Counted from the first letter of the stretch, positions 1 through 39,708 are shown. The stretch is 39,708 nucleotides of DNA from a virus (IMGVR_UViG_3300045988_140580); one strand, 5' to 3'. The notes: a model not told the origin generated them from the sequence alone. Numbers and translations are program-made.

Positions 1-81
1 ATCACCGTCGTCTTTGGCACATCCATTGCGACCATCTTCGGCGTATTCCTCATTCCGATTCTGTTCATCATCGTAGAAAAT
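1..81. repeat. Left copy of 81-bp terminal direct repeat (identical to 39628-39708). Candidate phage DTR, circular-assembly overlap, or att core.
   Basis: Exact identity of 1-81 with 39628-39708, read directly. The repeat has a higher GC content and a C-ending codon bias unlike the phage genes, and it is open in + frame 1, where it encodes a hydrophobic helix. Confidence 0.9.
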
Positions 82-180: not shown

Positions 181-1263
181 TCACGGGTAACTCCATGTTA
201 CTCGGTTGTCTGTGGAGTGTGTGTAGTATTTCAGAGTAGTTTCTATACTACTGTGACCCATCAGTTTGCTTACTCTCATAACGTCTACATGTTTCTCAGT
301 TATGAGTAGGGTAGCAAAAGTATGTCTCATGTCGTACAGGTGGTGTCCTCTACCCAGTACGGCATGGGTATACTTTTTGAATCGCATATTTACATTATCG
401 ACACTCATATAACCATACTGGCTCTTGAAGGAATAGAAGATATTATCCTTTGGGAGCCTTTTTATATTACTTACTAACCACTTACCATACTGCTCTTTGT
501 CTATCGGTACTATCCTATAACTGCTATCCTGTGTCTTCATCCCATCCTGTAGTTTTCCTCTGAATCCCAGGGATTTGTTGAAGTTCACATAGTTTTCCGT
601 AACATCTTCCTTGGTAAGCGCGAGTATTTCCTGTGGTCGTGCCCCAGTTATCATACCGATTACTATGTATATTTGGTAGACTAGGGGAAGCTTAGTAGAC
701 AAAGTTTTTTTATCTAGCAGCTTACTGACTTCCTCACTGGAGAATGTACGTATGTGTCTTTTGGGTTTACCCTTGATGGTCCTTATGGCACCTCTGCTTG
801 TCATTGGATTATTATCAAGGTATCCCTCGTATACCGCGGTTTCCAGTATAGCTTTGAAGTTCTTTCTCCATCTTGACAGGGTAGAAGTAGCGTAGCCATG
901 GGAAGCCAGACCTAGGAAATACCTATTGATATCCTGTGTAGTCAGATCATAAAACTTTGTCTTAGCTAACTTACTGCCTACTACATGTTTGTTATAGAAA
1001 TGCTTGATACCATTTAAGGTAGACTCACGATACACATTTTCCTTCAGTTCTATGAAGTGTTCCCAATATTCCTCTATGGTAGTAGGGGTGAAGTACTTTA
1101 TGTTTGTTCCTCGTACCTTATCAAAAAACTGCTCAACTTCCTGTCGGGTATCACACGTTTTACTAACTCGCTTACCATTACCGATGCATATAGCACCTTT
1201 GAATTTTCCATTTGGTGTCCTTGTTATAGAACCAGTACCTTTTTCTCTTCTTATTCTTTTCAT
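181..1263 (-). CDS. int: Tyrosine recombinase / phage integrase
   Basis: 360-aa ORF. The C-terminal catalytic region reads HDMRHTFATLL...LMGHSSIETTLKYYTH (R..HxxR..Y tyrosine recombinase motifs), and ARPQEILAL supplies the box A arginine. An RBS GAAAGGTGA lies upstream on the minus strand. It is the only large gene on the minus strand. Confidence 0.93.
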   Translation of the reverse strand: MKRIRREKGTGSITRTPNGKFKGAICIGNGKRVSKTCDTRQEVEQFFDKVRGTNIKYFTPTTIEEYWEHFIELKENVYRESTLNGIKHFYNKHVVGSKLAKTKFYDLTTQDINRYFLGLASHGYATSTLSRWRKNFKAILETAVYEGYLDNNPMTSRGAIRTIKGKPKRHIRTFSSEEVSKLLDKKTLSTKLPLVYQIYIVIGMITGARPQEILALTKEDVTENYVNFNKSLGFRGKLQDGMKTQDSSYRIVPIDKEQYGKWLVSNIKRLPKDNIFYSFKSQYGYMSVDNVNMRFKKYTHAVLGRGHHLYDMRHTFATLLITEKHVDVMRVSKLMGHSSIETTLKYYTHSTDNRVTWSYP

Positions 1264-1479
1264 ATATCACCTTTCTTCCCTAGATACTTTTAGTTGTTCC
1301 CTCTATGGGTAGGATAGCATAAGGGGACACAGTATTCCAGATGAAAATTGGAGAAAAATTTGTGATACTAGATTGATTGAGATCTCCTCAGATTTTCCCC
1401 CGTGTACCCCCTGGACAACAATATAAAATAAAATAAACTTAATTATATACTATTATATGTCTGAACAGAAACACATAAG

Positions 1480-1525
1480 GTCTCACGGTATCCCTGATAA
1501 TATCAAGGTTTACACGGTATCCAGT
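1480..1525. repeat. Direct repeat of CACGGTATCC(C/A)(T/G)TG at about 30-bp spacing (candidate protein-binding sites near int)
   Basis: tctCACGGTATCCctg at about 1480 and tttaCACGGTATCCagtg at about 1510. Confidence 0.4.
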
Positions 1526-1722
1526 GTCTATCTATTGCTTTTATTTATGATACACACGGAGCCGTTGTATTGATGTTATCAGTTTTTTTAATTAGTTGAA
1601 TGAGTCAACTATATGGATACTCAAGGATATATGATGGAAACATTAAGATATATGAACGAATGTTCATGTGATATTAAAAATTGCTCTATAAAATATCTGT
1701 CTATATACATTAGAAATACTTA

Positions 1723-1875
1723 TCACGTACATCAGAAATATTTATAAGATACATCAATGTTACTTATAATATACATTGGAAATACTTATAACATACATAT
1801 TCCAGGCATGGAGTATACTTATGACAGACACAGGAAATACGTATGATAGACACAGAATATGTTGGGATACATGGC
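1723..1875. repeat. Iteron-like array: about 7 imperfect tandem copies of a 22-bp unit GAAATACTTATNANNTACATCA
   Basis: Units begin at about 1723, 1745, 1767, 1789, 1811, 1834 and 1855, for example GAAATACTTATCACGTACATCA, GAAATATTTATAAGATACATCA, GAAATACTTATAACATACATAT and GGAAATACGTATGATAGACACA. The array is AT-rich and non-coding, and lies between int and the repressor module. Confidence 0.7.
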
Positions 1876-1944
1876 TTATGGTCTATAGCATATTGCTATT
1901 AATCTAAGCATCGAAAGAAGATAAAGCATTAACTAATTTTCTTA

Positions 1945-2337
1945 TTACTGTTTTGAGCGTATATACATAAAAGTACCAATAAGTAATATGATTCCGATAA
2001 TGATATTAAGAGATAATAAATAAGCTGTTTCATTTTTTAATTTATTAACTTCAGATTCTAATTGTTTTATTTTGTTATAATTTTGCGTTATTGTTTTTCC
2101 CTGTGCTTCATTTATTAATACTGTTTCAGATAAAACCTCATCAATACGCTCATTTGGCTGTAATGTTTGGGGATCTATATGCGGTTGAAAATTTCTATAT
2201 TTATCATTATACCACTGAACAAATGCATTATGTGTACCTCGGTCCCATGTATCATTTTTCCAGTCGTAGGCCATTATTTCCATAACAGAGACAAAGAGTA
2301 AACATAAAGAAATTATAATTTTGAAGAATATCTTCAT
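1945..2337 (-). CDS. Secreted/membrane protein (N-terminal signal peptide or TM, coiled coil, C-terminal TM). Candidate lysogenic-conversion or superinfection-exclusion protein.
   Basis: The ORF track gives 1945..2382 from a TTG start. The more plausible start is ATG 2337 (MKIFFKIIISLCLLFVSVMEIMA), preceded by GAGGTG. The C-terminal hydrophobic segment is LLSLNIIIGIILLIGTFMYI. It is co-oriented with the repressor and int. Confidence 0.5.
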   Translation of the reverse strand: MKIFFKIIISLCLLFVSVMEIMAYDWKNDTWDRGTHNAFVQWYNDKYRNFQPHIDPQTLQPNERIDEVLSETVLINEAQGKTITQNYNKIKQLESEVNKLKNETAYLLSLNIIIGIILLIGTFMYIRSKQ

Positions 2338-2434
2338 TTTATACACCTCAATTATATGTAAATTATAAGAATAGTATAGCAAAATATAGGTATCCTTAGA
2401 ATACTTTTGTATTCTTTAGATACCCATATTTTAG

Positions 2435-2611
2435 TTATTGCTTTTTATTTTCAGTTATTAGAATATTTTCATTATCATTAACATATTTTGTAATATGTCG
2501 TGTTAAATATCCGCTTACAGTGTCGCCTTTTATTTTTAGTATTTTTTGAAATTTGTTTTTTAGTTCACTATCTATTCTTATTTGCATGAACTTTTCTTTT
2601 GTGTCTTTCAT
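2435..2611 (-). CDS. Small ribbon-helix-helix (Arc/Mnt/CopG-like) DNA-binding protein, 58 aa. Candidate lysogeny repressor. Not in ORF track (under 60 aa).
   Basis: Hand translation of the minus strand gives MKDTKEKFMQIRIDSELKNKFQKILKIKGDTVSGYLTRHITKYVNDNENILITENKKQ*. The pattern is a beta-strand (FMQIRIDSEL) with alternating hydrophobics, helix A, a G-D-T-V-S-G loop (the G-x-S/T-x-S RHH hallmark) and helix B. An RBS AGAAGGGAAG lies 9 nt upstream. It is divergent from the early operon, with operators between them. Confidence 0.6.
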   Translation of the reverse strand: MKDTKEKFMQIRIDSELKNKFQKILKIKGDTVSGYLTRHITKYVNDNENILITENKKQ

Positions 2612-2637
2612 ATAATATCACTTCCCTTCTAATATTC

Positions 2638-2665
2638 ATTATAGCAGGTTTTTTAAGTTGTGACA
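2638..2665 (-). promoter_or_regulatory. Sigma70-like promoter for the RHH gene (minus strand): -35 TTGTCA (2665..2660), 16-nt spacer, -10 TATAAT (2643..2638)
   Basis: Read on the reverse complement. The -35 overlaps the operator half-site at 2660-2676. Confidence 0.45.
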
Positions 2666-2676
2666 ATGTAGTAAAA
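2660..2676. promoter_or_regulatory. Operator-like site O1 (half-conserved): TGTGACAATGTAGTAAA
   Basis: Shares CAATGTAGTAA with O2 and O3. Overlaps the -35 of the leftward promoter. Confidence 0.45.
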
Positions 2677-2692
2677 AAAAACAAATTAGGTA

Positions 2693-2721
2693 TTGACTTT
2701 GTCACTACATTGTAGTAATAT
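2693..2721 (+). promoter_or_regulatory. Sigma70-like early promoter: -35 TTGACT (2693-2698), 16-17-nt spacer, -10 TAATAT/AATATA (2715-2721)
   Basis: Near-consensus hexamers read directly. Operator O2 lies inside the spacer. The promoter is upstream of the first early gene (ATG 2822). Confidence 0.6.
2700..2717. promoter_or_regulatory. Operator O2: GTCACTACATTGTAGTAA (perfect 6+1+6 palindrome ACTACA-T-TGTAGT)
   Basis: Palindrome read directly. Located in the spacer of the early promoter. Confidence 0.6.
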
Positions 2722-2780
2722 ATACTCAACGAAAGGGAACATATCAAAATATAAAGTTCCCAAAAATTTTTAACTTCTTA

Positions 2781-2797
2781 TGTCACTACAATGTAGT
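2781..2797. promoter_or_regulatory. Operator O3: GTCACTACAATGTAGTA (palindrome ACTACA-A-TGTAGT) in the early-transcript leader
   Basis: Second perfect copy of the O2 palindrome, about 25 nt upstream of the first early gene's RBS. Confidence 0.55.
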
Positions 2798-2821
2798 ACA
2801 ATCAAGAAAGGAAGGGTAAAC

Positions 2822-3193
2822 ATGGAAGAAGTAACAAAGGAAATGATAATGGACGCTTTGACTGATTATGTTTCTGAATTGTCTGAAGAAGACACAATTA
2901 CACTATGGAATGCCTATTGTGAAGACTACAACCAGATGCACCGATTCATTTATCTAAATGATTTTGACGAACTCGACAGCGTTTTTAAGTCACCTTCAGA
3001 AGCTTTGTATATGGCACAGTATTCACCGTATCACATCAACGACAGATATTTTACTTACAGTTCTTTTTGTGGGCTTATGTCTTTCAGTTTTCTTACAGAT
3101 GAAAATAGTCCGGTAGTAGTTGATGAATTAGTTAGCTACCTGATGAGTCAAAGAGCTGTATATATTTTAGTAAAAAGTCAGTTAGAAAGGTAG
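2822..3193 (+). CDS. Early protein, strongly acidic (about 22 D/E vs 7 K/R in 124 aa). Candidate DNA-mimic / anti-restriction protein (by composition only).
   Basis: ATG 2822 with RBS AAAGGAAGGG; the ORF-track start at 2780 is less likely. It is the first gene of the host-transcribed operon, the position of T7 gene 0.3 (Ocr). Confidence 0.6.
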   Translation: MEEVTKEMIMDALTDYVSELSEEDTITLWNAYCEDYNQMHRFIYLNDFDELDSVFKSPSEALYMAQYSPYHINDRYFTYSSFCGLMSFSFLTDENSPVVVDELVSYLMSQRAVYILVKSQLER

Positions 3194-3202
3194 GTAATTA
3201 CT

Positions 3203-3418
3203 ATGACACAGAGAATCACGGAAAAATTTTTAGATAACATGATTAAAAACATCAATAACAGAACTGGCAGAAAGTACTTCTTAGAATATGCATACGGTGG
3301 GGTAAAACTGGCGCATACATACGAAAACGGCGGATACACAGATGAAAGTTATAGAATGACAAAACGAGAAATGTATTATGTCCTAGATGCTTTACAGCAC
3401 TTCATCAATCACAATTAG
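3203..3418 (+). CDS. Hypothetical early protein (71 aa)
   Basis: ORF with RBS GAAAGGTAGG. No recognisable motif. Confidence 0.5.
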   Translation: MTQRITEKFLDNMIKNINNRTGRKYFLEYAYGGVKLAHTYENGGYTDESYRMTKREMYYVLDALQHFINHN

Positions 3419-3507: not shown

Positions 3508-3963
3508 ATGACAAGAATTAGCCTGTATCACGTAGAGTTAGTAAAAGATAGCAGCCATAACTATAACGTCTCAAGAGATATGTCTAGCCCGTATAATGTC
3601 ATTCATATGCTTGTAAATACATTGCATCTGGACAAACGCAACGTAGAAAATTTTGGCATGATTGCAGTTAATACGCAAAACAAATTAATAGCTGTACAGA
3701 TTTTAACGCAAGGATCTATCGATACATCTATAGCAAGTACTAGAGAAGTCTTTCAATGCGCTTTACTGCATAATGCACGTGCCATAATACTATTCCATAA
3801 TCATCCTTCCGGGAATTCTGGTCCTTCTAAAGAAGATATAGCAATAACTAAAAGGATAGTTAAAGCTGGGGAACTACTAGGTATTCCGGTATTGGACCAT
3901 GTGATTATAGGTAGTGAGAACGATTACTTTAGCATGAGAAGTGAGGGAATTATCAATGACTAA
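3508..3963 (+). CDS. RadC-like JAB/MPN-domain protein (DUF2466 family)
   Basis: Motif ILFHNHPSGNSGPSKEDIAITKRI matches the RadC-like HNHPSG...PS.xDxxxT signature. 151 aa. Confidence 0.85.
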   Translation: MTRISLYHVELVKDSSHNYNVSRDMSSPYNVIHMLVNTLHLDKRNVENFGMIAVNTQNKLIAVQILTQGSIDTSIASTREVFQCALLHNARAIILFHNHPSGNSGPSKEDIAITKRIVKAGELLGIPVLDHVIIGSENDYFSMRSEGIIND

Positions 3964-5005: not shown

Positions 5006-5035
5006 ATATATAAATGCATGAACAAACGTTCTGTT

Positions 5036-10155: not shown

Positions 10156-11740
10156 TAATGTTCCTATTAAAACGCATTTACCGTGTCCGGATTGTGGTTC
10201 TCATGATGCATTAACAGAGTATTCAGATGGGCACACATATTGTTTCTCATGTCAGACAGTCAGGAATACTTTAGCGCGTGAAAGTAAATTGATTGACATA
10301 AACTCTTTGTCTTTCTCACCACTAAAAAAGCGCGGTATTATGACAAACACATGTGAGAAATATCATTATTACACAGGATATCACAACGGGAAACCTGTTC
10401 ACGTAGCTTGCTATTATGACGACACAGGGGAGCTGATAGGTCAGAAAGTACGCTATCCAGATAAGACGTTTGAGACAATCGGAAAGATTTCTAAAAGGTT
10501 TTTCGGACAGGAGCTGTTCTCTAGCAGGGGAAAGTTAGTTATCACTGAAGGTGAAATTGACTGTCTTACTGTCTCACAGCTGCAGGGGAATAAGTATCCA
10601 GTTGTGTCCATCCCAACAGGTGTTGTGTCTGCTAAAAAAGTGATAACGCATAACATGGAGTGGCTTTCACAGTTCGATGAAATCATTCTGATGTTCGATA
10701 TGGATGAGCCGGGGAGAAAAGCCGTAAAAGAATGTGCAGGCCTTCTCAAAGGCATTAAGGTAGCTAATTTACCTATGAAAGATCCTAACGAATGTCTGTT
10801 AAATGACAAAGGTCAAGCTGTGATAAATGCTATATGGAATGCGAAACCATACAGGCCGGATGGAATAGTTAATGGTGCTGAACTATGGGATATTGTAGAT
10901 AGTGAGGAAGACACAAAAGGGTACAGTTATCCTTGGGATATTCCATTAAATGACATGACACTCGGTATGCGAAAAGGCGAACTGGTAGTGATTACCGCAG
11001 GGACAGGCGTAGGTAAAACTACATTTGTCAGACAACTTATGTATGAATTAGGTGTCAATCAGGGCCGGAAGATAGGCTGTATGATGCTAGAAGAAAATAT
11101 TAAACGTACAGCAATCGGCCTTATGTCTATCCATACAGGTAATAGATTGCACTTAAATAGACATGCAATATCGGAAGAAGAATATCATAAAGCATTCGAT
11201 GAGACACTGGGTACAGGTCACTATGTCTTATACAATCATTTTGGTTCACTCGATGGTGACAACTTACTCAACAAAATACGATACCTGGCTATCTCAGAAG
11301 AGTGTGATTTCATAGTTTTAGATCATGTGTCTATAGCTGTTTCGGGTCTTGAAGGAGATAACGAGCGGAAACTCATAGACTATCTTATGACACAAATGAG
11401 GAGCATAGTAGAAGAAACTGGTGTAGGTATGTTGGTTATCAGTCACTTAAGGCGACCAGATACATCGCAACAATCTCATGAGGAAGGCGGAATAACGTCT
11501 TTGTCTCAGTTAAGAGGTTCTCATGCTATTTCTCAGTTATCAGACATAGTTATTGGCTTGGAGAGAAACCAACAGGATGAGGATGAACATATGAAAAACA
11601 CCATAAAAATACGGGTTCTTAAGAATCGGTTCAGTGGCGATACTGGAATAGCCGGATACCTAGAGTACAGTAAGAAGACAGACAGATTAGAAGTAAAAGG
11701 AAAGAGGGAGAATAATAATGATGATGAAGCAGAGTTTTAA
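10148..11740 (+). CDS. T7 gp4-like primase-helicase
   Basis: Zinc ribbon CPDCGSHDALTEYSDGHTYCFSCQ, TOPRIM ITEGEIDCLTV, Walker A GTGVGKTT, and helicase motifs. Confidence 0.93.
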   Translation: MNDNVPIKTHLPCPDCGSHDALTEYSDGHTYCFSCQTVRNTLARESKLIDINSLSFSPLKKRGIMTNTCEKYHYYTGYHNGKPVHVACYYDDTGELIGQKVRYPDKTFETIGKISKRFFGQELFSSRGKLVITEGEIDCLTVSQLQGNKYPVVSIPTGVVSAKKVITHNMEWLSQFDEIILMFDMDEPGRKAVKECAGLLKGIKVANLPMKDPNECLLNDKGQAVINAIWNAKPYRPDGIVNGAELWDIVDSEEDTKGYSYPWDIPLNDMTLGMRKGELVVITAGTGVGKTTFVRQLMYELGVNQGRKIGCMMLEENIKRTAIGLMSIHTGNRLHLNRHAISEEEYHKAFDETLGTGHYVLYNHFGSLDGDNLLNKIRYLAISEECDFIVLDHVSIAVSGLEGDNERKLIDYLMTQMRSIVEETGVGMLVISHLRRPDTSQQSHEEGGITSLSQLRGSHAISQLSDIVIGLERNQQDEDEHMKNTIKIRVLKNRFSGDTGIAGYLEYSKKTDRLEVKGKRENNNDDEAEF

Positions 11741-12188
11741 GGTTCCTGTTCATGATTATGGGATTACATTAACAGAAATTCCAGATGAAATCACTCTGTA
11801 TTTTAACATTGGAAATTGTGAGTGCCATTGTAAAGGTTGTCATAGTGATTTTCTGTGGGATACACATTTAAATACGCCGATGAAAACGGTAGATGAAATT
11901 TTGTCTATTGTCAAGAAATACAAAGAGGATGTAACAGCTATTGTGTTCATGGGTGGCAATCGTAATGGTATGGATTTTGAAGAATTTGCAGATAAAGTGT
12001 TGAAGCCTGTGTCTGAATTTATGGATGTTGGTATCTACATGGGAGCTTGGGATGCTAATGATTTATTCGTTGCATCTCAATATTGCCGATGGATTAAAGT
12101 AGGCTGCTACAAAGAAGATTATGGTGGACTAGATTCTCCAGCTACCAATCAGCTGTTTTTTGAAGTACAAAATTATAAATTCTTATAG
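11718..12188 (+). CDS. nrdG: Anaerobic ribonucleotide reductase activating protein (NrdG-like radical-SAM activase)
   Basis: GNCECHCKGCHSDFLWD matches the NrdG CxxxCxxC cluster and context (T4 NrdG ...FFQGCPHHCPGCQNPETW). About 156 aa, like T4 NrdG. Adjacent to NrdD. Confidence 0.7.
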   Translation: MMMKQSFKVPVHDYGITLTEIPDEITLYFNIGNCECHCKGCHSDFLWDTHLNTPMKTVDEILSIVKKYKEDVTAIVFMGGNRNGMDFEEFADKVLKPVSEFMDVGIYMGAWDANDLFVASQYCRWIKVGCYKEDYGGLDSPATNQLFFEVQNYKFL

Positions 12189-12197
12189 GTGGTAACA

Positions 12198-12458
12198 ATG
12201 ACGTTTACATTACATGTTATTAAAGGTTGTGCATACTGTGATGCTATTTTGTCTTTATATCCATCATTGGTAAAGAGATATCCTAAGTTATATTTCAATA
12301 TGAAATGTGATGAAAGTGCAAATGAGGGTACAGTATATCCATATATTGAAGCATATCATCTTGATGTTGACGGTGTGTATAGAGACAAAAAAGATTCCAT
12401 GCTATACATCAATGATGTTGTAGATTTTGTAGAAAGGAGTCTTAATAAAGGTAAATGA
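12198..12458 (+). CDS. Glutaredoxin/NrdH-like thioredoxin-fold protein
   Basis: CAYC (CxxC) after the first beta-strand. Lies between nrdG and nrdD. ATG 12198 follows AGGTGG. Confidence 0.5.
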   Translation: MTFTLHVIKGCAYCDAILSLYPSLVKRYPKLYFNMKCDESANEGTVYPYIEAYHLDVDGVYRDKKDSMLYINDVVDFVERSLNKGK

Positions 12459-14218
12459 TTTTGAACTTAACTCCTGATCAGATACAGGGGAAGATTGATT
12501 ATATTAAGAAGTATTCACAAGCGTCCAATAGTGCTGATGGTTCATTAGTTGATAGTAATGCTAATGTAGACACAAAAAACATAGGCATTCTGGAAGCGGA
12601 ACTGTATAAGCCAGAGACGATTCAGATTAATAGAGAGATTGTGAAGCAAAAGTTAGACAGCATGTTTCCTGGACTAGGAGCACAGTATATCAAGGACATA
12701 GAAAGTCACTTTATTTATATCCATGATGAAACGTCCTTGCGTCCCTACTGTGCTTCTATTACCTTGTTTCCTTTCCTGCTAAATGGTACTAAACCTCTGG
12801 GTGGGACAAGCAAAGCACCAAAGAACCTGCATAGTTTTTGTGGATCATTCATTAATCTTGTCTATCAGGTAGCGTCTGGTTTTGCAGGTGCTGTGGCTAC
12901 TGTCGAATTTCTGCTATATTTTGATTATTTTGCGAGAAAGACATATGGCAGTGCTTACATAACTACTAACAAGAAAGAGGTAGAACAGGCCCTACAGGGT
13001 GTTGTATATGCCTTGAATCAGCCTGCTAGTGCACGGGGAAATCAGAGCGTGTTCTGGAATATCTCTGTATTAGACAAGCATTATTTTGAGCACCTATTTG
13101 GTACATTTCATTTTCCGGATGGTTCACAGGCTATGTATTATGGTTCATTCCATGATTTGCAGGAGCTTTTTATGGAGTGGTTCAGGAAAGAGAGGGAGAA
13201 AGAGCTACTGACATATCCCGTTTTGACAGCTTCTATGCTTATCAACGATGAGGGCGTTCCTGTAGACACAGAATTTGCAGAGATGTGTGCTGAGGAAATG
13301 TCCAAAGGTCTGAGCTTCTTTGTCTATGAATCACAAAGTGTTGACTCACTTGCTTCCTGTTGTCGATTGCGCAATGAACTGTCTGACAATACGTTTAGCT
13401 ATACACTGGGAGCAGGTGGGGTATCTACAGGTTCCATACAGGTTATTACACTGAACATGAACAGACTCGTACAACAGAAAGACCATACTGTGTCTGACAT
13501 TGTAAAGCGTGTTCATAAGTACCTTCTGGCATACAGGGCAGTGATTGAAGATTACATGAATAGTGGTTTGTTGCCAGCGTATACAGCTGGGTTTATTAAT
13601 CTGGACAAGCAGTTTCTTACTGTTGGTATCAATGGCATGTTGGAAGCTTCTGAGTTCCTGCACGGTAAACCAGACATAGACTTCTATAGAGATACATTGA
13701 AGACTATCTACTTGTTGAATAAAGAGGATGGTCAAAGATACAAAGTTAAATATAATACGGAGTTTGTCCCCGCAGAAAATTTAGGTGTGAAGAATGCAAA
13801 GTGGGACAAAGAAGATGGCTTAGTGGTTCCTAGAGACTGCTATAATTCCTATTTCTTTCCTGTAGAGAGCAGTGAGTACAGCATTATAGACAAACTTGAT
13901 ATGCATGGTTTACGTACTACAGCGTTTCTTGACGGGGGAGCAGCTTGTCATCTTAATTTGGCGCAGTTATTGACTAAGAAACAGGCGTATCAACTAATGT
14001 GTCTTGCAGGTAAGAAGGGCGTTAATTACTGGACATTTAACTGCTTAATGACAATTTGTGACGATTGTGGATATATTGATGTGAACACGGAAAGGCAGTG
14101 CACGAAATGTGGAAGTACCAATGTTGGTTATGCCACTCGTGTCATTGGCTATCTCAAACGTATTGATAGTTTTTCCACAGCACGTCAGAAGGAAGCTTTT
14201 AAACGACATTATACTTAA
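12455..14218 (+). CDS. nrdD: Anaerobic (class III) ribonucleoside-triphosphate reductase NrdD
   Basis: C-terminal zinc ribbon CDDCGY...CTKCGS followed by the glycyl-radical motif ATRVIGYL (RVxGY). Size 587 aa, adjacent to the NrdG-like gene. Confidence 0.75.
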   Translation: MILNLTPDQIQGKIDYIKKYSQASNSADGSLVDSNANVDTKNIGILEAELYKPETIQINREIVKQKLDSMFPGLGAQYIKDIESHFIYIHDETSLRPYCASITLFPFLLNGTKPLGGTSKAPKNLHSFCGSFINLVYQVASGFAGAVATVEFLLYFDYFARKTYGSAYITTNKKEVEQALQGVVYALNQPASARGNQSVFWNISVLDKHYFEHLFGTFHFPDGSQAMYYGSFHDLQELFMEWFRKEREKELLTYPVLTASMLINDEGVPVDTEFAEMCAEEMSKGLSFFVYESQSVDSLASCCRLRNELSDNTFSYTLGAGGVSTGSIQVITLNMNRLVQQKDHTVSDIVKRVHKYLLAYRAVIEDYMNSGLLPAYTAGFINLDKQFLTVGINGMLEASEFLHGKPDIDFYRDTLKTIYLLNKEDGQRYKVKYNTEFVPAENLGVKNAKWDKEDGLVVPRDCYNSYFFPVESSEYSIIDKLDMHGLRTTAFLDGGAACHLNLAQLLTKKQAYQLMCLAGKKGVNYWTFNCLMTICDDCGYIDVNTERQCTKCGSTNVGYATRVIGYLKRIDSFSTARQKEAFKRHYT

Positions 14219-17176: not shown

Positions 17177-17761
17177 GTGTTGCCTAAAGTAGAACTAATT
17201 GCTATTACACCTAACTATATTCAGTTAATTCAGCGGGCTATGGGAGAGTGCTATCAGCGCCCTGTAGGAGAAAAGACGGTAAAGAAAGCTATTCAAGCAG
17301 GGCATTTGTCTGTACTTGAACATTGCTCAGCAACGTTTGAGATTCAGTGCTCTATTTCTGTGTTGCTACAACTGACCAGACACAGACATTTTTCCTTTAC
17401 AGTACAGAGTTCTAGGGGATGCGAACTTACACACTTTCACAAGACTGGCATTGAGTTTTTAGATAGTCTGCTGATAGAGCATATGGCTGATTATAAGTAT
17501 GCTGTAGAAGATGGTTGTAAGAATAAAGAAGATGCTGCTTACTTATTGCCTAAAGCCGCTGAATATAAATTACTTATTACAGGAAACTTCAGGGCATGGT
17601 ATGAGTATTTGCCTAAGCGGATGTGCAAGAGAGCACAGAAGGAACATAGACAAATGGCAGAACAGATTCAGAAACTGTTAGCAAAGACAGCACCAGAGAT
17701 TTTTGATAGAGATTTTATGAATTGCGATAGATGCACTGAAAAGAGTTGTTCGTTCTCATGA
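17177..17761 (+). CDS. thyX: Flavin-dependent thymidylate synthase ThyX
   Basis: ThyX signature RHRHFSFTVQSSR (RHRx7-8S). GTG start after AAGGGGG. Confidence 0.8.
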   Translation: MLPKVELIAITPNYIQLIQRAMGECYQRPVGEKTVKKAIQAGHLSVLEHCSATFEIQCSISVLLQLTRHRHFSFTVQSSRGCELTHFHKTGIEFLDSLLIEHMADYKYAVEDGCKNKEDAAYLLPKAAEYKLLITGNFRAWYEYLPKRMCKRAQKEHRQMAEQIQKLLAKTAPEIFDRDFMNCDRCTEKSCSFS

Positions 17762-33461: not shown

Positions 33462-34721
33462 ATGGCTCAAGATTTAAAAGCAAGTGTATCTTTTATTGGT
33501 GATGGTAATACTACTAAATTTTATTTCGGATTTGATTATATTAATAAGCAGTTTATTAAGGTCTCTGTAGGGACAGACGGCACACTTTTGTCTTATCCTA
33601 CAGATTACACGGTGAATGATAAAGAGGTGGAGTTCGTGAAAGCACCTGCTAATGGTACACCAATTCGAATTTATAGACAAACTAATACATCTCGAATTAT
33701 TGAATGGTCTGATGGTGCATTCATTAAAGCTTTACAGATGACGCTTGAAAACGTTCAGCAGTTACATCTGATTGAAGAATCCCAGGACTATGTAATCATC
33801 AATGGCATGTCTAAGTATCCAGATGGAGTTAATTTTAACGCTCTGGGAGCACGTGTTATAAATGTTGCAGACCCAAAAGAGTCACAGGATGCTGTAACGA
33901 AGCACTACATGGAAACGGTACAGGGTGGCTTTGTGTCTCAGAATACAGCACTGGTAGAACAGGCGACTACACAGGCGACCAATGCGAAAAACAGTGCATC
34001 CAGTGCGGCTACATCAGCTTCCCAGAGTGCTTCTAGTGCCAGTGCTTCTGAAACATCTAATCAGTCGGCTAAGAAGTGGGCTGAGTCTACGGATTCTCCA
34101 GATAATCAGGCAGACACAGATAGTACGACAGGGAAGACACAGAGTTCCCGAAGTTGGGCGTTGTATAGTAAGGCAAAAGCGCAGGAAGCGATTACAGCTA
34201 CTAGCACAATGGATGAAAAAGTTGCTGTTGCTATAGAACAAGCGAGCAATGCCGCTAAAAATGCTGAGAATAGTAGAGTTAATGCAGAAAATTCTTCTGT
34301 AAGCGCAGAGAAAGCACTCTCGGCAGCAAACAATGCAGGTGCTTATGCGAATGCGGCTCAGATATCTGAGGTAAACGCAGCTGAAAGTGCGAAACAGGCA
34401 GCCGAATCCGCTGTTGTCTCGAATGCTTTCACAGGGGCCACAGCTACACAAGATGGCACAGCCGGGATAGTACCAAAACCACTGGCAGGACAACAGACTA
34501 GTTTCTTAGCTGGTAGTGGTACATGGGAACCTATTTATCTCCTTGTGACCACAGGAATGATAGTGGCATTCAAGGGAAAGCTAGATACAAATGGATTCCC
34601 GATTATTCCTTCTTTAAATACTCCCAATTTTGCATGGCATGTATGTGATGGGACAAATGGCACGCCGGATTTAAAAGATAAATTTATTCCAGGCACGTCT
34701 TATATCATGATGATCGGATAA
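33462..34721 (+). CDS. Tail fiber protein, gp17-like (conserved N-terminal tail-attachment domain, divergent Ala/Ser-rich shaft and C-terminal tip)
   Basis: N-terminal 110 aa are collinear with T7 gp17 (...GDGNTTKFYFGFDYINKQFIKV..., QQLHLIEE). 419 aa. Confidence 0.8.
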   Translation: MAQDLKASVSFIGDGNTTKFYFGFDYINKQFIKVSVGTDGTLLSYPTDYTVNDKEVEFVKAPANGTPIRIYRQTNTSRIIEWSDGAFIKALQMTLENVQQLHLIEESQDYVIINGMSKYPDGVNFNALGARVINVADPKESQDAVTKHYMETVQGGFVSQNTALVEQATTQATNAKNSASSAATSASQSASSASASETSNQSAKKWAESTDSPDNQADTDSTTGKTQSSRSWALYSKAKAQEAITATSTMDEKVAVAIEQASNAAKNAENSRVNAENSSVSAEKALSAANNAGAYANAAQISEVNAAESAKQAAESAVVSNAFTGATATQDGTAGIVPKPLAGQQTSFLAGSGTWEPIYLLVTTGMIVAFKGKLDTNGFPIIPSLNTPNFAWHVCDGTNGTPDLKDKFIPGTSYIMMIG

Positions 34722-34754
34722 TAAGTGAATAATAAATGTAGGTAATCTTATGAT

Positions 34755-34794
34755 GAGGTATTTTAAGAGTTCTTGAGAACACTCAAAATACCTC
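34755..34794 (+). terminator. Long near-perfect hairpin after the tail fiber gene (GAGGTATTTT...AAAATACCTC with inner GAGT/ACTC). No T-run; terminator or RNA processing site.
   Basis: Inverted repeat read directly. Confidence 0.4.
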
Positions 34795-34840
34795 AGAAAA
34801 CCTTGGTTACATTTGTGATTACGTAATAGGAGAATGATAG

Positions 34841-35044
34841 ATGAAAAACTATATTATTCGTATGCAGGATGAACGTGCGAAATTAGAAACTAAATGGGAC
34901 AAACTTATTAAATATGTGAGCGAGCATTATGATAACCTTGATGGAACAGAAATATACTTGATGCAACAGCAAATTAAGTGTATGGAAAAATATATCATGT
35001 TTCTTAACGCTCGTATTGATCATGCTAAACTCAAAGAAAAGTAA
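34841..35044 (+). CDS. Hypothetical small protein (67 aa)
   Basis: RBS AGGAGAATGA. No TM segment. Confidence 0.45.
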   Translation: MKNYIIRMQDERAKLETKWDKLIKYVSEHYDNLDGTEIYLMQQQIKCMEKYIMFLNARIDHAKLKEK

Positions 35045-35058
35045 AAGGACGATGAAAA

Positions 35059-35529
35059 ATGAAACGAGGTTCGCTAACTAATATGATTAACACAATATGG
35101 AACTTATGGACAGCCACAGAAGTTAAGATTGGCTGTCTTTTTTCTATCCTCTGGCTAGCGTTCAATACACTTGTAGGGGGTGTGGATGACCAGATACAGG
35201 CCCTTGTCATTCTTGTGTCTTTAGACATACTGACTGGCATGGTTGCATCTTGTAAATCACACTCCTTTGTGAGTGCCATCGCTACGAGAGGACTTTGTAA
35301 GAAAGCTGTTATGTTCTTAGTCATTGGTCTGGGTGTCTTACTGGACAGTGCCATGCATACACATATGATCCGCACGATGTTCATAGGGGCCTATGCGATT
35401 GTAGAGGCCATGAGTATCTTAGAGAACATAGACAAACTGGGGTATGGACACTATATCCCGAATTTTATACGAAATGCTTTGGCTCAGATTGCTAGAGAAA
35501 AGCATGTGGAAAAGGAAGGGGACAAATAG
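35059..35529 (+). CDS. Holin (multi-TM, about 3-4 TM segments)
   Basis: Several hydrophobic helices: CLFSILWLAFNTLVGGV, ALVILVSLDILTGMVAS and AVMFLVIGLGVLL. Charged C-terminus. Immediately upstream of the endolysin. Confidence 0.65.
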   Translation: MKRGSLTNMINTIWNLWTATEVKIGCLFSILWLAFNTLVGGVDDQIQALVILVSLDILTGMVASCKSHSFVSAIATRGLCKKAVMFLVIGLGVLLDSAMHTHMIRTMFIGAYAIVEAMSILENIDKLGYGHYIPNFIRNALAQIAREKHVEKEGDK

Positions 35530-35591
35530 ATGCTTTTCGTTCTACTTTTGTACCTTTTTCTCTTAAACCTTATAAAAGGTGGTGTTATTTA

Positions 35592-35729
35592 AATGATTGA
35601 TATTTCTGCAATACTCAACAGTTGCTTTTTGTGTTTCTTTTTCGCTACTATCCTTCACACACGCATAGATGAAAAAGACACCTGTACAATTATTCTTTGT
35701 TTTATTTGGTTACAATGTATTATCCTTAG
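35592..35729 (+). CDS. Small hydrophobic Cys-rich peptide (45 aa), not in track. Possible antiholin or membrane peptide.
   Basis: ATG 35592 after AAAAGGTGGTG. Hand translation gives MIDISAILNSCFLCFFFATILHTRIDEKDTCTIILCFYLVTMYYP*. Confidence 0.3.
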
Positions 35730-35769
35730 TTTATTTTATACTGTTATTAAACAAGGGGGTGTTATTTAG

Positions 35770-36366
35770 ATGGCCAGTAAAGTTATTGACGTATCCTATT
35801 GGCAGAAAGACATAGATTATGATGCAGTAGTTGATGCAGGTGTCGATGGAGCCATTGTCAAGATATCTGAAGGATGTATTGAAGAAGAAACATGGAGACA
35901 CCATGTAGAACAGTGTATTGAACGTGGCCTGAAGTGGGGTGTCTATGTCTATTCTCATGCTTCGACACCTGAAAGGGCCAGAGAGGAAGCAGAGACAGCT
36001 ATCATGCTTTTGTCTGGATATTCTACACCACCTTTAGGTATCTGGTTTGATTGTGAAGACCCTGAGTGCTTCGAGGAAGGTATAGACACAACAGCAATCT
36101 GCTCAGCCTTTATCGTAGAATGTAATGAAGCTGGATTCAGAGCAGGTATCTACTCGTCTTCCTTGAAGTTTACAGACTACATGGAAAACTCTATTCAGCC
36201 TAATTTGCTTGCTGATTATGTACCATACTGGATTGCAGATTATCGTGGATACAATGGGTTTGCTCAGGCATACCCAGATAAGCACGTAGCAGGTTGGCAG
36301 TGGAGTGATAAGGAATATATTGGAGATACTAATGTTGATATGAATGAATGGTATGAGGAGATGTAA
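35770..36366 (+). CDS. GH25-family endolysin (muramidase)
   Basis: N-terminal KVIDVSYWQKDIDYDAVVDAGVDGAIVKISEG matches the GH25 signature (DVS.WQ...D...V...G..F..IK..EG). Confidence 0.88.
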   Translation: MASKVIDVSYWQKDIDYDAVVDAGVDGAIVKISEGCIEEETWRHHVEQCIERGLKWGVYVYSHASTPERAREEAETAIMLLSGYSTPPLGIWFDCEDPECFEEGIDTTAICSAFIVECNEAGFRAGIYSSSLKFTDYMENSIQPNLLADYVPYWIADYRGYNGFAQAYPDKHVAGWQWSDKEYIGDTNVDMNEWYEEM

Positions 36367-36369
36367 GAT

Positions 36370-36558
36370 ATGTACAAGAACCTACGCAAGCAACTTTGCA
36401 AAGAGATTAATAAAATGGATGACCATATGTTTATCCTTCATTTAGCTTGCTTGGATATGATAGATACAGAAATTGTTGATAAAATTATTGATTTTAAAAG
36501 ATTAAAAGACGAAGCAGATAAGATTGAGAAAAACTTAGAAAAAAGGAGTAGGGAATGA
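36370..36558 (+). CDS. Hypothetical small protein (62 aa)
   Basis: ORF between the endolysin and the spanin-like genes. Confidence 0.4.
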   Translation: MYKNLRKQLCKEINKMDDHMFILHLACLDMIDTEIVDKIIDFKRLKDEADKIEKNLEKRSRE

Positions 36559-36953
36559 ATGAAGATAAAATCAAATATGCTGAAAAGATCGTTGCTGTCT
36601 GCATTATTGGTTGTCTCGCTATCTTCTGTCTCTTTTGCGTCTACAACTACCTATCCGCAGACAAATCAGCAGACGATCACAATGACACTATCACAATACA
36701 ACGAATTGAAGATGAACATAGACAGCTTGGAGATGAACTTGCAGATATTAGAACAGAACTCCAGTACGGACAAGAAGCAGTTAATAGAGCTGAGGAACGA
36801 GTTGGAGACCTGCAAGAGTCAAATGCTGTTAGCGCAGAAAAGCTCAGAGAAAGCAGAGAACTTATTGAAAGAAGTAGAAACATCTTTAAAGACGTTGACA
36901 GAGCAAATGGACTCCCTGAAGCACAAACTGGCAGTGAAGGAACGACAAAATAA
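36555..36953 (+). CDS. i-spanin-like protein (N-terminal TM plus charged coiled-coil periplasmic domain)
   Basis: TM segment IVAVCIIGCLAIFCLFCVYNYL followed by an E/R-rich helical region. Position after the lysozyme. Confidence 0.5.
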   Translation: MNEDKIKYAEKIVAVCIIGCLAIFCLFCVYNYLSADKSADDHNDTITIQRIEDEHRQLGDELADIRTELQYGQEAVNRAEERVGDLQESNAVSAEKLRESRELIERSRNIFKDVDRANGLPEAQTGSEGTTK

Positions 36954-37371: not shown

Positions 37372-37396
37372 AAATTCGCAAAGGGGTGAGGAAATA

Positions 37397-37651
37397 ATGA
37401 AGATAGATCCTAAACTGTTAGATAAACTTGCAGAGGAAGAAGTACAGGCTCTACTTGATGGTATACAGGATGAAGAATTACGACAAAATCCTGCATTCCT
37501 GGCTAAAGTAAGACAATTCTTAAAAGACAATGATTTGAAGACAACACCAGAAACTACAGCACCTTTGGTTAAACAGATTACGAAAGAATTACCTGATTTT
37601 GGAGAGGATGATGATTTAACTGTTAACACAATGGACACAAGAACAAATTGA
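37397..37651 (+). CDS. Putative terminase small subunit (gp18-like, by size and position)
   Basis: 84-aa acidic helical protein directly upstream of the large terminase. No diagnostic motif. Confidence 0.4.
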   Translation: MKIDPKLLDKLAEEEVQALLDGIQDEELRQNPAFLAKVRQFLKDNDLKTTPETTAPLVKQITKELPDFGEDDDLTVNTMDTRTN

Positions 37652-39335
37652 TGACGCTAAGAAAGATTTTCGTAAGTTTCTGTTCATTTTATGGGATGAG
37701 ATTGCGCTCCCTGAGCCTACAGGCATACAATATGCCATAGCGTCATTATTGATGAAATGCCCACAGAAACGATTCATTATAGAAGGATTCCGTGGTGTAG
37801 CTAAGTCGTTTATTACATGTGCTTATATTGTTTGGTGTCTATGGAATAACCCGCAGCTGAAATGCTTGATAGTGTCTGCTAGTAAGGATAGAGCGGATGC
37901 TAATGCGGTATTCATACGACGTATCATTTACTTACTAGACTTTTTGTCTGATCTTAAGCCTAGAGATGGTCAACGTAATACACAGAACCTTTTTGATGTT
38001 GGCTTAGCAATACCTGATATTTCTCCTTCTGTAAAATCCGTTGGTATTACAGGTCAGATAACAGGCAGCCGTGCAGACATATTGGTTGCAGATGACGTAG
38101 AGATACCAAACAATTCCAGTACACAGGTCCGTAGAGACAAACTATTCGAGGATGTAAAAGAATTTGATGCTATTATAAAGCCGGGGGATAGTAGTAAGAT
38201 TATATACCTTGGAACTCCCCAAAATGAGATGTCACTATATAATGAATTACAGAATCGTGGCTATGGTGTCTTTGTATTCCCTATCGTATATCCGGAAACA
38301 CCAGAGGAACGTGAATACTATGGAGACAAATTAGCTCCCTTTATTGCTGAACCGTATGATAGAAATCCGGAGCTATACGCAGGCAAGCCAACAGATCCTA
38401 AACGATTCCCAGAAGAAGAAATTGAAGAACGTAGATTATCCTACGGTAAGGCAGGGTTTTCTTTACAGTTCAAACTGAATACTAACTTGTCTGACTATGA
38501 AAAGTATCCATTAAAAGTACAAGACCTGATTGTCTCAGAAGTGGATTTGGATGAAAGTTCACTGAAGTGGGCATGGGCAAGCAGTTATGAGTACAGATTA
38601 AACTCATTGCCTTGTGTAGCAGTCAAAGGTGATTATTTCTATAGAGAGTTCGGTAGAAGTAAGGAGACAGCTAAATATACAGGTACCGTTATGTCTATAG
38701 ACCCATCTGGTAGGGGAACAGATGAAACTGCTTACTCTATTGTGAAATACCTGAATGGTTATCTTTTTGTAGTAGAAGTAGGTGGTTATTCAGAAGGATA
38801 CTCTGATTCTGTACTGACACAGTTAGCAAATAAAGCAAAAGTGTATGGAGTAAATGAGATTGTCGTAGAAGCTAACTTCGGGGATGGCATGTTTACACAG
38901 TTATTCAAGCCCATACTGAATAAAATACATCCATGCTCCATTCAAGAAGTGAAGAACACTAAGCAGAAAGAAGCTCGTATTATTGATACACTGGAACCTG
39001 TTATGATGAGACACAAGTTAATAGTAGCAGAGTCAGTCATTAAAGATGATTATATAATATATGAAAATAAAGGACAGAATTACTCTCTGATATATCAACT
39101 GACACGCCTAAGCAGAGACAAAGGTTCACTATCACATGATGACCGCCTGGACTCCTTAACAATGGCTGTGTCGTATTGGTTAGAAGTTATGGATAGGGAT
39201 GAGCAAGTAGGGATGGATGAACAACTGGATGACTTTCTAGAAGCAGCTATGGATGATGACAGGGGCATCTTCTCACTGATGTATGGTAATACCGATATGA
39301 ATAAAAATAGGAATATAATGAATAAAAAATGGTAG
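37620..39335 (+). CDS. Terminase large subunit, T7 gp19-like. The conserved N-terminus is encoded upstream of the track's start, with no canonical start codon.
   Basis: Very high identity to T7 gp19 (FRGVAKSFITCAYIVW, LIVSASKDRADAN, SPSVKSVGITGQITGSRADI, IYLGTPQ, YGKAGFSLQF, IDPSGRGTDETAY). The frame is open from 37620 and encodes LLTQWTQEQIDDAKKDFRKFLFILW, which aligns with T7 MSTQ...DFVAFLFVLW. The first in-frame ATG is at 37752. Confidence 0.9.
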   Translation: MLTQWTQEQIDDAKKDFRKFLFILWDEIALPEPTGIQYAIASLLMKCPQKRFIIEGFRGVAKSFITCAYIVWCLWNNPQLKCLIVSASKDRADANAVFIRRIIYLLDFLSDLKPRDGQRNTQNLFDVGLAIPDISPSVKSVGITGQITGSRADILVADDVEIPNNSSTQVRRDKLFEDVKEFDAIIKPGDSSKIIYLGTPQNEMSLYNELQNRGYGVFVFPIVYPETPEEREYYGDKLAPFIAEPYDRNPELYAGKPTDPKRFPEEEIEERRLSYGKAGFSLQFKLNTNLSDYEKYPLKVQDLIVSEVDLDESSLKWAWASSYEYRLNSLPCVAVKGDYFYREFGRSKETAKYTGTVMSIDPSGRGTDETAYSIVKYLNGYLFVVEVGGYSEGYSDSVLTQLANKAKVYGVNEIVVEANFGDGMFTQLFKPILNKIHPCSIQEVKNTKQKEARIIDTLEPVMMRHKLIVAESVIKDDYIIYENKGQNYSLIYQLTRLSRDKGSLSHDDRLDSLTMAVSYWLEVMDRDEQVGMDEQLDDFLEAAMDDDRGIFSLMYGNTDMNKNRNIMNKKW

Positions 39336-39357
39336 ATTTCTGGTATCCCAGAAATCT

Positions 39358-39380
39358 TATTGTCCCACATATAGGAAAGT
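39358..39380 (+). promoter_or_regulatory. Promoter half-site variant TTATTGTCCCACATATAGGAAAG, in tandem 28 bp upstream of P4
   Basis: Same arrangement as 7721-7743. Confidence 0.4.
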
Positions 39381-39384
39381 CGCT

Positions 39385-39418
39385 TATTGTCCCACTATTA
39401 AGAGAGAGAAGGGAAGAC
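39385..39418 (+). promoter_or_regulatory. Phage-RNAP promoter P4: TTATTGTCCCACTATTAAGAGAGAGAAGGGAAGAC (right-end promoter, like T7 phiOR)
   Basis: Full family member downstream of the terminase gene. Confidence 0.7.
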
Positions 39419-39627
39419 AAAGGAAAACTAAAGTATCTAAGGAACTCTAATTATACTAAGTATACATATGTACTCAGTTAGCTGTCCTTTAGCGCACTGA
39501 AGTATTCCTGTATCCTTCAGTATCCCTAAAGTATCAAACACTATATCCCATATCGGATAGACAAGGAATAAGCAACTAACAGCTAAACACTTACCACTAA
39601 TTACACACTCATAGGAAGCCTATGGGC

Positions 39628-39708
39628 ATCACCGTCGTCTTTGGCACATCCATTGCGACCATCTTCGGCGTATTCCTCATTCCGATTCTGTTCATCATCG
39701 TAGAAAAT
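39628..39708. repeat. Right copy of the 81-bp terminal direct repeat
   Basis: Identical to 1-81. Confidence 0.9.

Follow-up and report, generated by a model that had tools for sequence, protein, structure and literature searches.

The subject of this study is a tandem array of 22-bp repeats in the viral sequence IMGVR_UViG_3300045988_140580, a stretch of 39,708 nucleotides that we refer to throughout as the window. It represents a temperate T7-like prophage whose host is the gut bacterium Megasphaera, and its two ends are the 81-bp att repeats of that prophage; the array lies between the integrase gene (int) and the lysogeny switch. We read the array as the counterpart of SRL, the left-hand short-repeat array of phage T7, situated beside the terminal repeat and the packaging signals of the phage genome, and we put the probability of this reading at about 0.7. 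The identification is made because the array directly follows the predicted terminal repeat. Among the roles suggested in a preliminary description of this DNA, that of a pac or terminal-processing region of a T7-family genome is the one we favour: an ATCTGT motif adjoins the array, a pre-repeat motif lies 324 bp upstream, and arrays are present at the equivalent place in T7-like phages, so that a putative function in terminal processing or packaging is supported by position. A feature of this type is expected for T7-like phages; the host here is a Negativicute and the phage is temperate.

The array and the predicted terminal repeat

Tandem Repeats Finder reports an array of period 22 at 1705-1798 (4.3 copies, 73% matches, score 104) with an 11-bp sub-period at 1761-1800, and a repeat search places six copies in one register, their starts being 22, 22, 22, 33 and 22 nt apart. 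Read directly, the array extends over about 175 bp (1702-1877) and comprises six clear 22-bp units (1713-1800 and 1812-1855) flanked by degenerate copies at both edges; the count of about seven tandem units given earlier was therefore fair, but the limits of 1723-1875 given with it were not the true ones. Each unit consists of two 11-bp halves, AAATACTTATn and AnnTACATCAg. All units stand in helical phase, every spacing being a multiple of 11, and the trinucleotide TAC recurs once per helical turn across the whole span. With at most one mismatch allowed, the 16-nt core ATACTTATNANNKACA has seven matches in the window, as against 0.31 in shuffled sequences; six of these belong to the array, and the seventh is a minus-strand copy at 2357-2372. 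The full 22-mer with at most three mismatches has three matches against 0.00 expected. The array unit is found nowhere else in the window.

The array is non-coding, as had been stated in the preliminary description, because the differences between its natural alleles (22, 38 and 21 nt, see below) would break any reading frame. The only open reading frames (ORFs) that overlap it encode 43-44 amino acids, and two small ORFs at 1613-1747 and 1776-1907 were rejected as genes, being interrupted or frameshifted in relatives. No structured RNA was matched by Rfam at gathering thresholds anywhere in the window, and a permissive search of 1264-2800 returned only a chance miRNA match at 2380-2431. A scan of 1100-3300 for promoters and terminators found eight promoter-like sites against 13.9 in shuffled sequences and no terminators, and thus offers no support for a promoter cluster. 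A search for distant matches to 1264-2800 in a phage DNA database (blastn) gave none, and a 145-aa ORF had no relatives in viral contigs; a loose two-unit pattern run on viral contigs was too unspecific to be of use, with more than 120 unrelated matches.

Given T7-type packaging, one terminal repeat is expected between the large terminase gene (terL) and the early genes, and we predict it at about 1371-1694 because this segment is flanked by a pre-repeat motif on one side and by ATCTGT on the other. Alignments of T7, T3, gh-1, VP4, T7-Ah and IME-DE1 show that their terminal repeats are preceded by AAAAATCTGA(G/A) plus six bases. More specifically, the motif AAAAATCTGAG-N6 (consensus AAAAATYTGWG-N6), followed by a terminal repeat with CCCCC at +26/27, is common to six T7-like phages, and the C-run at this offset is kept in all T7-like phages examined. 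The window has CCCCC at 1397, spaced from its pre-repeat motif as in these phages, and the pattern AAATNTGWR-N28-36-CCCCC matches the window once (1356-1401) against 0.02 expected; distant relatives carry AAAAATTTCTGAG at an equal spacing to TTCCCCC. Near the predicted left end of the repeat, TTCCCCCGTGTACCCCC echoes T7 GTTCCCCCATAGGGGGTACC at an equal offset. Two features that had been noted near the array fall within the predicted repeat: the direct repeats placed at 1480-1525 are copies of CACGGTATCC at 1484-1493 and 1513-1522, and the small palindrome ATGAAC-GAAT-GTTCAT, located before at about 1654-1669, is indeed present, its exact position being 1652-1667.

On the right, the predicted repeat is bounded by the motif ATATCTGTC. 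The sequence ATATCTGT occurs only once on the plus strand of the window, at 1693, and ATATCTGTC is kept in all relatives, including a group with about 65% integrase identity, even where the surrounding DNA has diverged. The related signal ATCTGTT is a class II pause and termination signal of T7 RNA polymerase and occurs naturally at the T7 concatemer junction (10.1101/2021.01.11.426313; 10.64898/2026.02.12.705533). In the public records of T7-like phages, ATCTGT lies at or close to the end of the direct terminal repeat (DTR): at 161 in T7 (DTR of 160 bp, with the SRL array following at 171-340), at 232 in T3 (DTR of 231 bp), and at 210 and 220 in gh-1 (DTR of 216 bp). Like T7, the window has few copies of ATCTGT on its transcribed strand (4 on the plus strand against 13.1 expected, and 36 on the minus strand; in T7, 3 against 12.4, and 15), which we take as moderate evidence only.

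Related phages and natural variation

Short-repeat arrays called SRL and SRR were reportedly described by Dunn and Studier in 1983 as flanking the T7 terminal repeat. The window array agrees with SRL in belonging to a phage with a T7-type terminase, in its location in the spacer that separates terL from the early genes, in the order of pre-repeat motif, terminal repeat, ATCTGT and array, and in starting within about 10-20 nt of ATCTGT. Its length is also similar (about 175 bp, compared with about 170 bp in T7), and its sub-period of 11 bp, like the 12-13 bp of the T7-like arrays, is close to one helical turn; in T7, the arrays that follow ATCTGT have a period of 13 and lie at 174-245 and 282-340. 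It differs, however, in being built from a 22-bp double unit of other sequence. Moreover, the predicted repeat of 324 bp is longer than the 160-231 bp of T7-like DTRs, an att-int cassette splits the SRR-like side from the repeat, and the window phage is temperate and has a Gram-negative-type Firmicute as its host.

Arrays at the equivalent place are found in T3 and in more distant T7-like phages. The record of Vibrio phage VP4 (NC_007149) opens with ATCTGTA, followed by an array of period 12 with 7.6 copies; Aeromonas phage T7-Ah (MT740748) has ATCTGT at 348 and 358 and then an array of period 12 with 6.2 copies; IME-DE1 and the human-gut phage MT835557 share this layout, and in T7-Ah, IME-DE1 and MT835557 ATCTGT lies about 175-225 bp after the CCCCC motif. 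In VP4 and T7-Ah, whose terL products are 55-56% identical to that of the window, the arrays likewise start right after ATCTGT, and their unit words match the two halves of the window array respectively: ATACATCA(A) is common to the left units of the window and to the VP4 units, which contain ATACATCAAG, and GATAGACACAG(A) is common to the right units and to the T7-Ah units (GATAGACACAGG), with a 12-mer shared. By the number of words shared with VP4 and T7-Ah, the array falls in the top 0.2-0.3% of genome windows, these being overlapping ones. The two phages differ from the window in their period of 12 bp rather than 22, in being lytic, and in having mainly one word type each, whereas the window combines both and adds a AAATACTTAT half-unit.

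Prophages whose neighbouring sequences are 97-100% identical differ at the array. Between two conserved flanks, the stretch measures 204, 182, 144 or 123 nt, lengths that correspond to four, three or two left units plus two right units or one fused right unit, with the 11-nt spacer always kept. The right sub-array has collapsed to one fused unit in L010, L137, L138 and L141, and one allele (L149) shows unit-to-unit conversion; overall, copy number ranges from 3 to 7 with int unchanged. In other relatives, the 22-bp array is replaced by one to three copies of the 12-bp unit CATGGAGTATCT (L134 and L135, with 97% integrase identity; L133, with 91%; and L136), and distant relatives with about 65% integrase identity have 29-bp or other repeats at this position. 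The preliminary description had proposed to compare the unit and its copy number among related phages; an array of one type or another is found in all of them, with no constraint on unit, period or copy number. Neither the early genes, the immunity region nor int was found to co-vary with the type of array, and array-bearing phages vary in the gene to the right of the array and in their immunity region independently of the array.

Three relatives whose terL is 85-88% identical (L161, L162 and L170; IMG/VR 3300014206_000178, 3300014203_001774 and 3300045988_085990) have no int between terL and the junction. Their order is terL, larger SRR-type arrays, pre-repeat motif, repeat, ATCTGT-type motif and short array, the last of these being 35 bp in two copies in L161. 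The arrays before and inside their predicted terminal repeat are much larger (23 bp in four copies, 48 bp in 2.5 and 32 bp in three). These phages may be lytic, or may carry int elsewhere.

Several observations weigh against the interpretation of the array as an SRL counterpart. The array shares no words with T7 SRL itself, and the word sharing with the VP4 and T7-Ah arrays, though suggestive, is modest and not decisive. Phages with identical terL (100%; L157 and L133) have a short array of another kind, built from one to three copies of CATGGAGTATCT, and their small terminase gene (terS) differs only by conservative changes in the first 30 residues; because such phages carry an alternative array, the exact array is not needed for packaging specificity. 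The SRR-like stretch at 39406-39600 is weak, with the att core and int lying between it and the predicted terminal repeat. Among 2131 hexamers, ATCTGT ranks only 97th by depletion, and under a Markov model of maximal order 6.5 copies would be expected. The seventh base of the window motif is C and not T, which is strictly required at that position by T7 RNA polymerase (class II signal AUCUGUU; 10.1101/2021.01.11.426313; 10.64898/2026.02.12.705533); gh-1, VP4, T7-Ah and IME-DE1 likewise have C, A or G there. Finally, the limits of the terminal repeat are predicted from motif homology. Contig ends were rejected as a proxy for the physical termini, since circular assemblies of the attP form break at arbitrary places and are uninformative.

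Co-variation of the array with the terminase was also set aside as uninformative: terL is identical across array types, and the changes in terS stem from a mosaic boundary. This boundary lies inside terS (L157 compared with 37374-37436 of the window), with about 450 extra bp upstream of the L157 terS and the first 30 residues diverged.

Table 1. Features of the array, of the predicted concatemer junction and of the neighbouring genes (positions in the window)
Feature	Position	Strand	Remarks
att core, 3' end of RND efflux-pump gene	1-81	+	identical to 39628-39708
Tyrosine integrase gene (int)	181-1263	-	phrog_1 E = 2e-51; PF00589
Pre-terminal-repeat motif AAAAATTTGTG-ATACTA	1354-1370	+	counterpart of T7 AAAAATCTGAG-TGACTA, followed there by TCTCACAG
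Predicted terminal repeat, ~324 bp, one copy in prophage	1371-1694	+	predicted from the two flanking motifs; contains TTCCCCCGTGTACCCCC (1395-1411), CACGGTATCC pair (1484-1522), palindrome (1652-1667)
ATATCTGTC, ATCTGT motif of T7 concatemer-junction (class II pause) type	1693-1701	+	predicted right terminal-repeat boundary, directly upstream of array
Left sub-array	1702-1800	+	leading half-unit and four 22-bp units (1713, 1735, 1757, 1779)
Leading half-unit TATATACATTA	1702-1712	+	direct sequence reading
22-bp unit GAAATACTTATCACGTACATCA	starts 1713	+	direct sequence reading
22-bp unit GAAATATTTATAAGATACATCA	starts 1735	+	direct sequence reading
22-bp unit ATGTTACTTATAATATACATTG	starts 1757	+	direct sequence reading
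22-bp unit GAAATACTTATAACATACATAT	starts 1779	+	direct sequence reading
11-nt spacer TCCAGGCATGG	1801-1811	+	phases the two sub-arrays (33 = 3 x 11); kept in all array-bearing alleles
Right sub-array	1812-1877	+	units 1812 and 1834 with ends GACAGACACAG and GATAGACACAG, then degenerate unit 1856-1877
22-bp unit AGTATACTTATGACAGACACAG	starts 1812	+	direct sequence reading
22-bp unit GAAATACGTATGATAGACACAG	starts 1834	+	direct sequence reading
Degenerate last unit	1856-1877	+	direct sequence reading
Conserved right flank, with small palindrome ATAGCA-TAT-TGCTAT (1885-1899)	1878-1905	+	kept in every array-bearing allele though the gene to the right differs
130-aa membrane-protein cargo gene	1945-2337	-	N-terminal signal-like and C-terminal hydrophobic segment; no family match
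Arc-like (ribbon-helix-helix) repressor gene	2435-2611	-	
Switch region with TGTCACTACATTGTAGTA repeats	between Arc-like gene and early genes		
Small terminase subunit gene (terS), gp18-like, 84 aa	37397-37651	+	PF11123 DNA_Packaging_2; weak match to phrog_891; candidate binder of junction repeats
T7-type large terminase gene (terL), gp19-like	37749-39335	+	phrog_38 E = 3e-113; PF22530 Terminase-T7_RNaseH-like
Two tandem candidate phage-RNA-polymerase promoters (CTTATTGTCCCAC...)	39352-39406	+	T7 phiOR position; point to att core, int (antisense), predicted terminal repeat and array
SRR-like stretch, CTAAAGTATC and GTATYC repeats	39406-39600	+	best genome window for T7 SRL words at k = 7, 8, 9; shares CCTAAAGTATC

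Alternative explanations and a possible mechanism

The leading alternative is that the array is slippage-prone, AT-rich filler beside the terminal repeat, devoid of sequence-specific function and resized by replication slippage or by recombination at the genome ends. The allele series fits such an account, as near-identical prophages differ by whole units (204, 182, 144 and 123 nt), one allele shows conversion between units, and some close relatives have only one to three copies of a different 12-bp unit; moreover, to our knowledge no function has been established for SRL in T7 itself. We nevertheless consider it unlikely, given that ATCTGT is followed by one array or another in all relatives and also in distant T7-like phages, that all spacings are multiples of 11 with the 11-nt spacer conserved, and that words are shared with the VP4 and T7-Ah arrays. 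The core TAY.TAT.A..KACA is also kept across 13 unit variants while other positions drift, in part by construction, as the extraction pattern fixed the core positions. A different possibility is that a filament-forming lysogeny protein (an excisionase or Cox/Apl-like factor, the Arc-like repressor, or the N-terminal domain of the integrase) binds the array to control int expression or excision. The array does lie between int and the immunity region, not far from the Arc-like gene, and an extra copy of the core (2357-2372, minus strand) is located just upstream of the 130-aa gene; the sites of P2 Cox and 186 Apl are direct repeats that resemble the 11-bp phasing seen here, and the arm sites of lambda attP, like the sites of Cox, Apl and Xis filaments, are phased direct repeats near an integrase gene. 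Yet the array varies across relatives, which argues against immunity operator sites, and it follows neither the switch (L010 has the array with a different switch, L138 with the same one) nor int (L134 and L135 lack the 22-bp array). Arrays also stand at the equivalent place in relatives without int at this locus and in lytic T7-like phages, and the operator-like repeats of the switch (TGTCACTACATTGTAGTA) differ in sequence. We therefore regard control of lysogeny through the array as very improbable.

Two further roles that the preliminary description had put forward fare worse. With their 22-bp units, direct orientation, helical phasing and AT-rich, non-coding surroundings, the repeats have the classic look of plasmid and lambdoid iterons, and T7 has a secondary origin near its left end that is associated with phiOL. 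A replication origin is even less probable, however, since scans of the neighbours and of the replication module against PHROG and Pfam detected no Rep, O or RepA-like initiator and the T7-type replisome needs none. No phage-promoter motif lies in or beside the array, the candidate origin by T7 logic would be after the polymerase gene (7719/7745), and relatives that share the replication genes have a different array or almost none; an iteron array would differ from this one in having a cognate initiator gene and in co-varying with replication genes, and this one sits at the packaging junction. Least probable of all are arm-type integrase sites belonging to attP. By reading of its sequence, the N-terminus of the integrase may resemble an arm-binding domain, and the repeats are near int. 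But a distance of 1.5-1.7 kb, taking in all of int, lies between the array and the 81-bp core, and no copy of the core motif of the array is found beside the att core on either side (82-180 and 39400-39627). The 22-bp units are missing from L134 and L135, in which the integrase is 97% identical and int has the same relative position, and from L133 (91%), and copy number changes from 3 to 7 with no change in int. As unit and copy number vary across relatives with the same integrase, essential arm sites are excluded. As a possible arm motif of the integrase that would connect the array with attP, the words GGATAC and GGTATCC were considered and rejected: their enrichment near att and int is modest (9 of 34 GGATAC sites), and they are absent from the array units.

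If the array is indeed the SRL counterpart, the elements of the concatemer or circle would follow one another as terS and terL, two phiOR-like promoters, the SRR-like repeats, the att core with int, the pre-repeat motif (1354-1370), the terminal repeat (about 1371-1694), ATATCTGTC, the array (1702-1877), the cargo gene, the repressor, the switch and the early genes. Virion DNA would then have the array just inside its left end, as part of the region for DNA maturation and packaging. Units that all face one side of the helix along some 175 bp would be the usual design of a platform to be coated or wrapped by a small oligomeric protein. The likeliest such protein would be the gp18-like small terminase or a maturation complex assembling where the phage RNA polymerase pauses, the polymerase arriving at the pause from the promoters at 39356 and 39383. 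The array would then be an accessory that tolerates changes in copy number and not an essential determinant of specificity. The R sites of lambda cosB and the pacL and pacR boxes of SPP1 are arrays bound by small terminase subunits, and by analogy these short phased repeats beside a terminase cutting site, which act as a platform for an oligomeric small subunit, may illustrate the mechanism proposed here; they have no sequence relationship to the window array, and we do not claim membership in either family. For SRL-type repeats, we know of no demonstration that a gp18-type small terminase binds them.

A broader, joint reading can be formulated, which we think doubtful as a whole. According to it, the arrays that flank T7-type terminal repeats would be functional, sequence-specific elements composed of a few words held in common (ATACATCA, GATAGACACAG and words of the CTAAAG type). 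These words would be conserved between the Megasphaera prophage and phages of Vibrio, Aeromonas and E. coli, and would be read by a conserved maturation protein such as a gp18-like small terminase. The att-int cassette inside the junction region would at the same time place int at the extreme right end of the virion genome, so that int would become contiguous with the terminal repeat, the array and the switch only after circularisation, coupling the control of int to genome topology.

A location at the concatemer junction would have practical consequences. It would allow a proper annotation of a widespread gut prophage, with virion ends predicted at about 1371 and 1694, so that int comes last on the right and the lysogeny switch is placed at the left extreme, and labelling the array as an origin or as attP arm sites would be wrong and should be avoided. 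The natural allele series (two to four left units, one to three right units, and alternative units of 12, 29 and 35 bp, all with nearly the same terminase) offers ready material for testing the function of SRL-type repeats. In addition, the combination of pre-repeat motif and ATCTGT can be used to predict the terminal repeats of T7-like phages in metagenomic or prophage sequences for which no read data are at hand.

Prophage boundaries and gene content

The first 81 bases of the window are identical to the last 81 (39628-39708). The same prophage, with an integrase 98% identical, is present in Megasphaera sp. AM44-1BH inside the 3' end of a 1063-aa RND efflux-pump gene, there with the array allele of 3+1 units, and because the 81-mer closely matches the 3' coding end of that gene we identify it as the att core. 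The phage supplies a replacement C-terminus for the pump gene (82-132, with the stop codon TGA at 130-132), which thus stays intact in lysogens. Excised contigs in the attP form exist (e.g., L009 and L145), and the sample of ERZ28623655 is one of those that contain them. Temperate T7-like phages are already known, for example LUZ100 (PMC10134795).

Plus-strand genes specify an RNA polymerase of the T7 type (5018/5096-7636; phrog_414, E = 5.5e-227), a gp4-like primase/helicase, a DNA polymerase, a gp2.5-like single-stranded DNA-binding protein and a gp3-like endonuclease, along with tail and lysis genes. The large terminase is 55-58% identical to terminases of lytic Autographiviridae, and 213 blocks of the assembly index have an entry for the small-terminase protein. 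In the human faecal phage MT835557.1, the terL homologue (55% identity) matches in two pieces over 2.3 kb (34589-36891), which suggests that it may be interrupted by an intron, an intein or an insertion.

A motif of about 23 bp, (C)TTATTGTCCCACTATTAAGAGAG, resembles a promoter for the phage RNA polymerase. Members of this motif family are all located on the plus strand, at 5034, 7719, 7745, 8688, 39356 and 39383. The likely true start of the polymerase gene (the 846-aa version, at about 5096) is closely preceded by one copy, and a promoter upstream of the polymerase gene has likewise been reported for LUZ100 (PMC10134795). There are two pairs, one after the polymerase gene, at the position of the phi1.1A/B origin of T7, and one after terL, at the phiOR position; before the late genes, no copies of the motif were found. 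The att core and int look like a cassette inserted between the SRR-like side and the pre-repeat motif.

The gene slot beside the array (1945-2337) holds swappable cargo, with unrelated genes found there in L001, L010 and L133-L136. Between this gene and the Arc-like gene is a 24-nt inverted repeat (2381-2432; 83% complementary, with a 4-nt loop) that has GGTATCC and GGATACC-like words and possibly functions as a terminator or binding site. Three copies of TGTCACTACA(T/A)TGTAGTA lie between the Arc-like gene and the first rightward gene, at 2662-2673 (reverse complement), 2700-2717 and 2781-2798. These copies, all within 2640-2800, are probably operators of the lysogeny switch, and the best sigma-70-like promoters of the region overlap them.

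Elsewhere in the window, genes for an anaerobic ribonucleotide reductase (NrdG- and NrdD-like; 11718-14218), a thymidylate synthase (17177-17761) and a RadC-like JAB protein (3508-3963) fit a strictly anaerobic gut host. The tetranucleotide GATC is strongly under-represented (37 copies observed against 135 expected from dinucleotides) and several hexamers are absent, such as GATCAA with 0 against 16 expected, a scarcity that suggests avoidance of host restriction sites.

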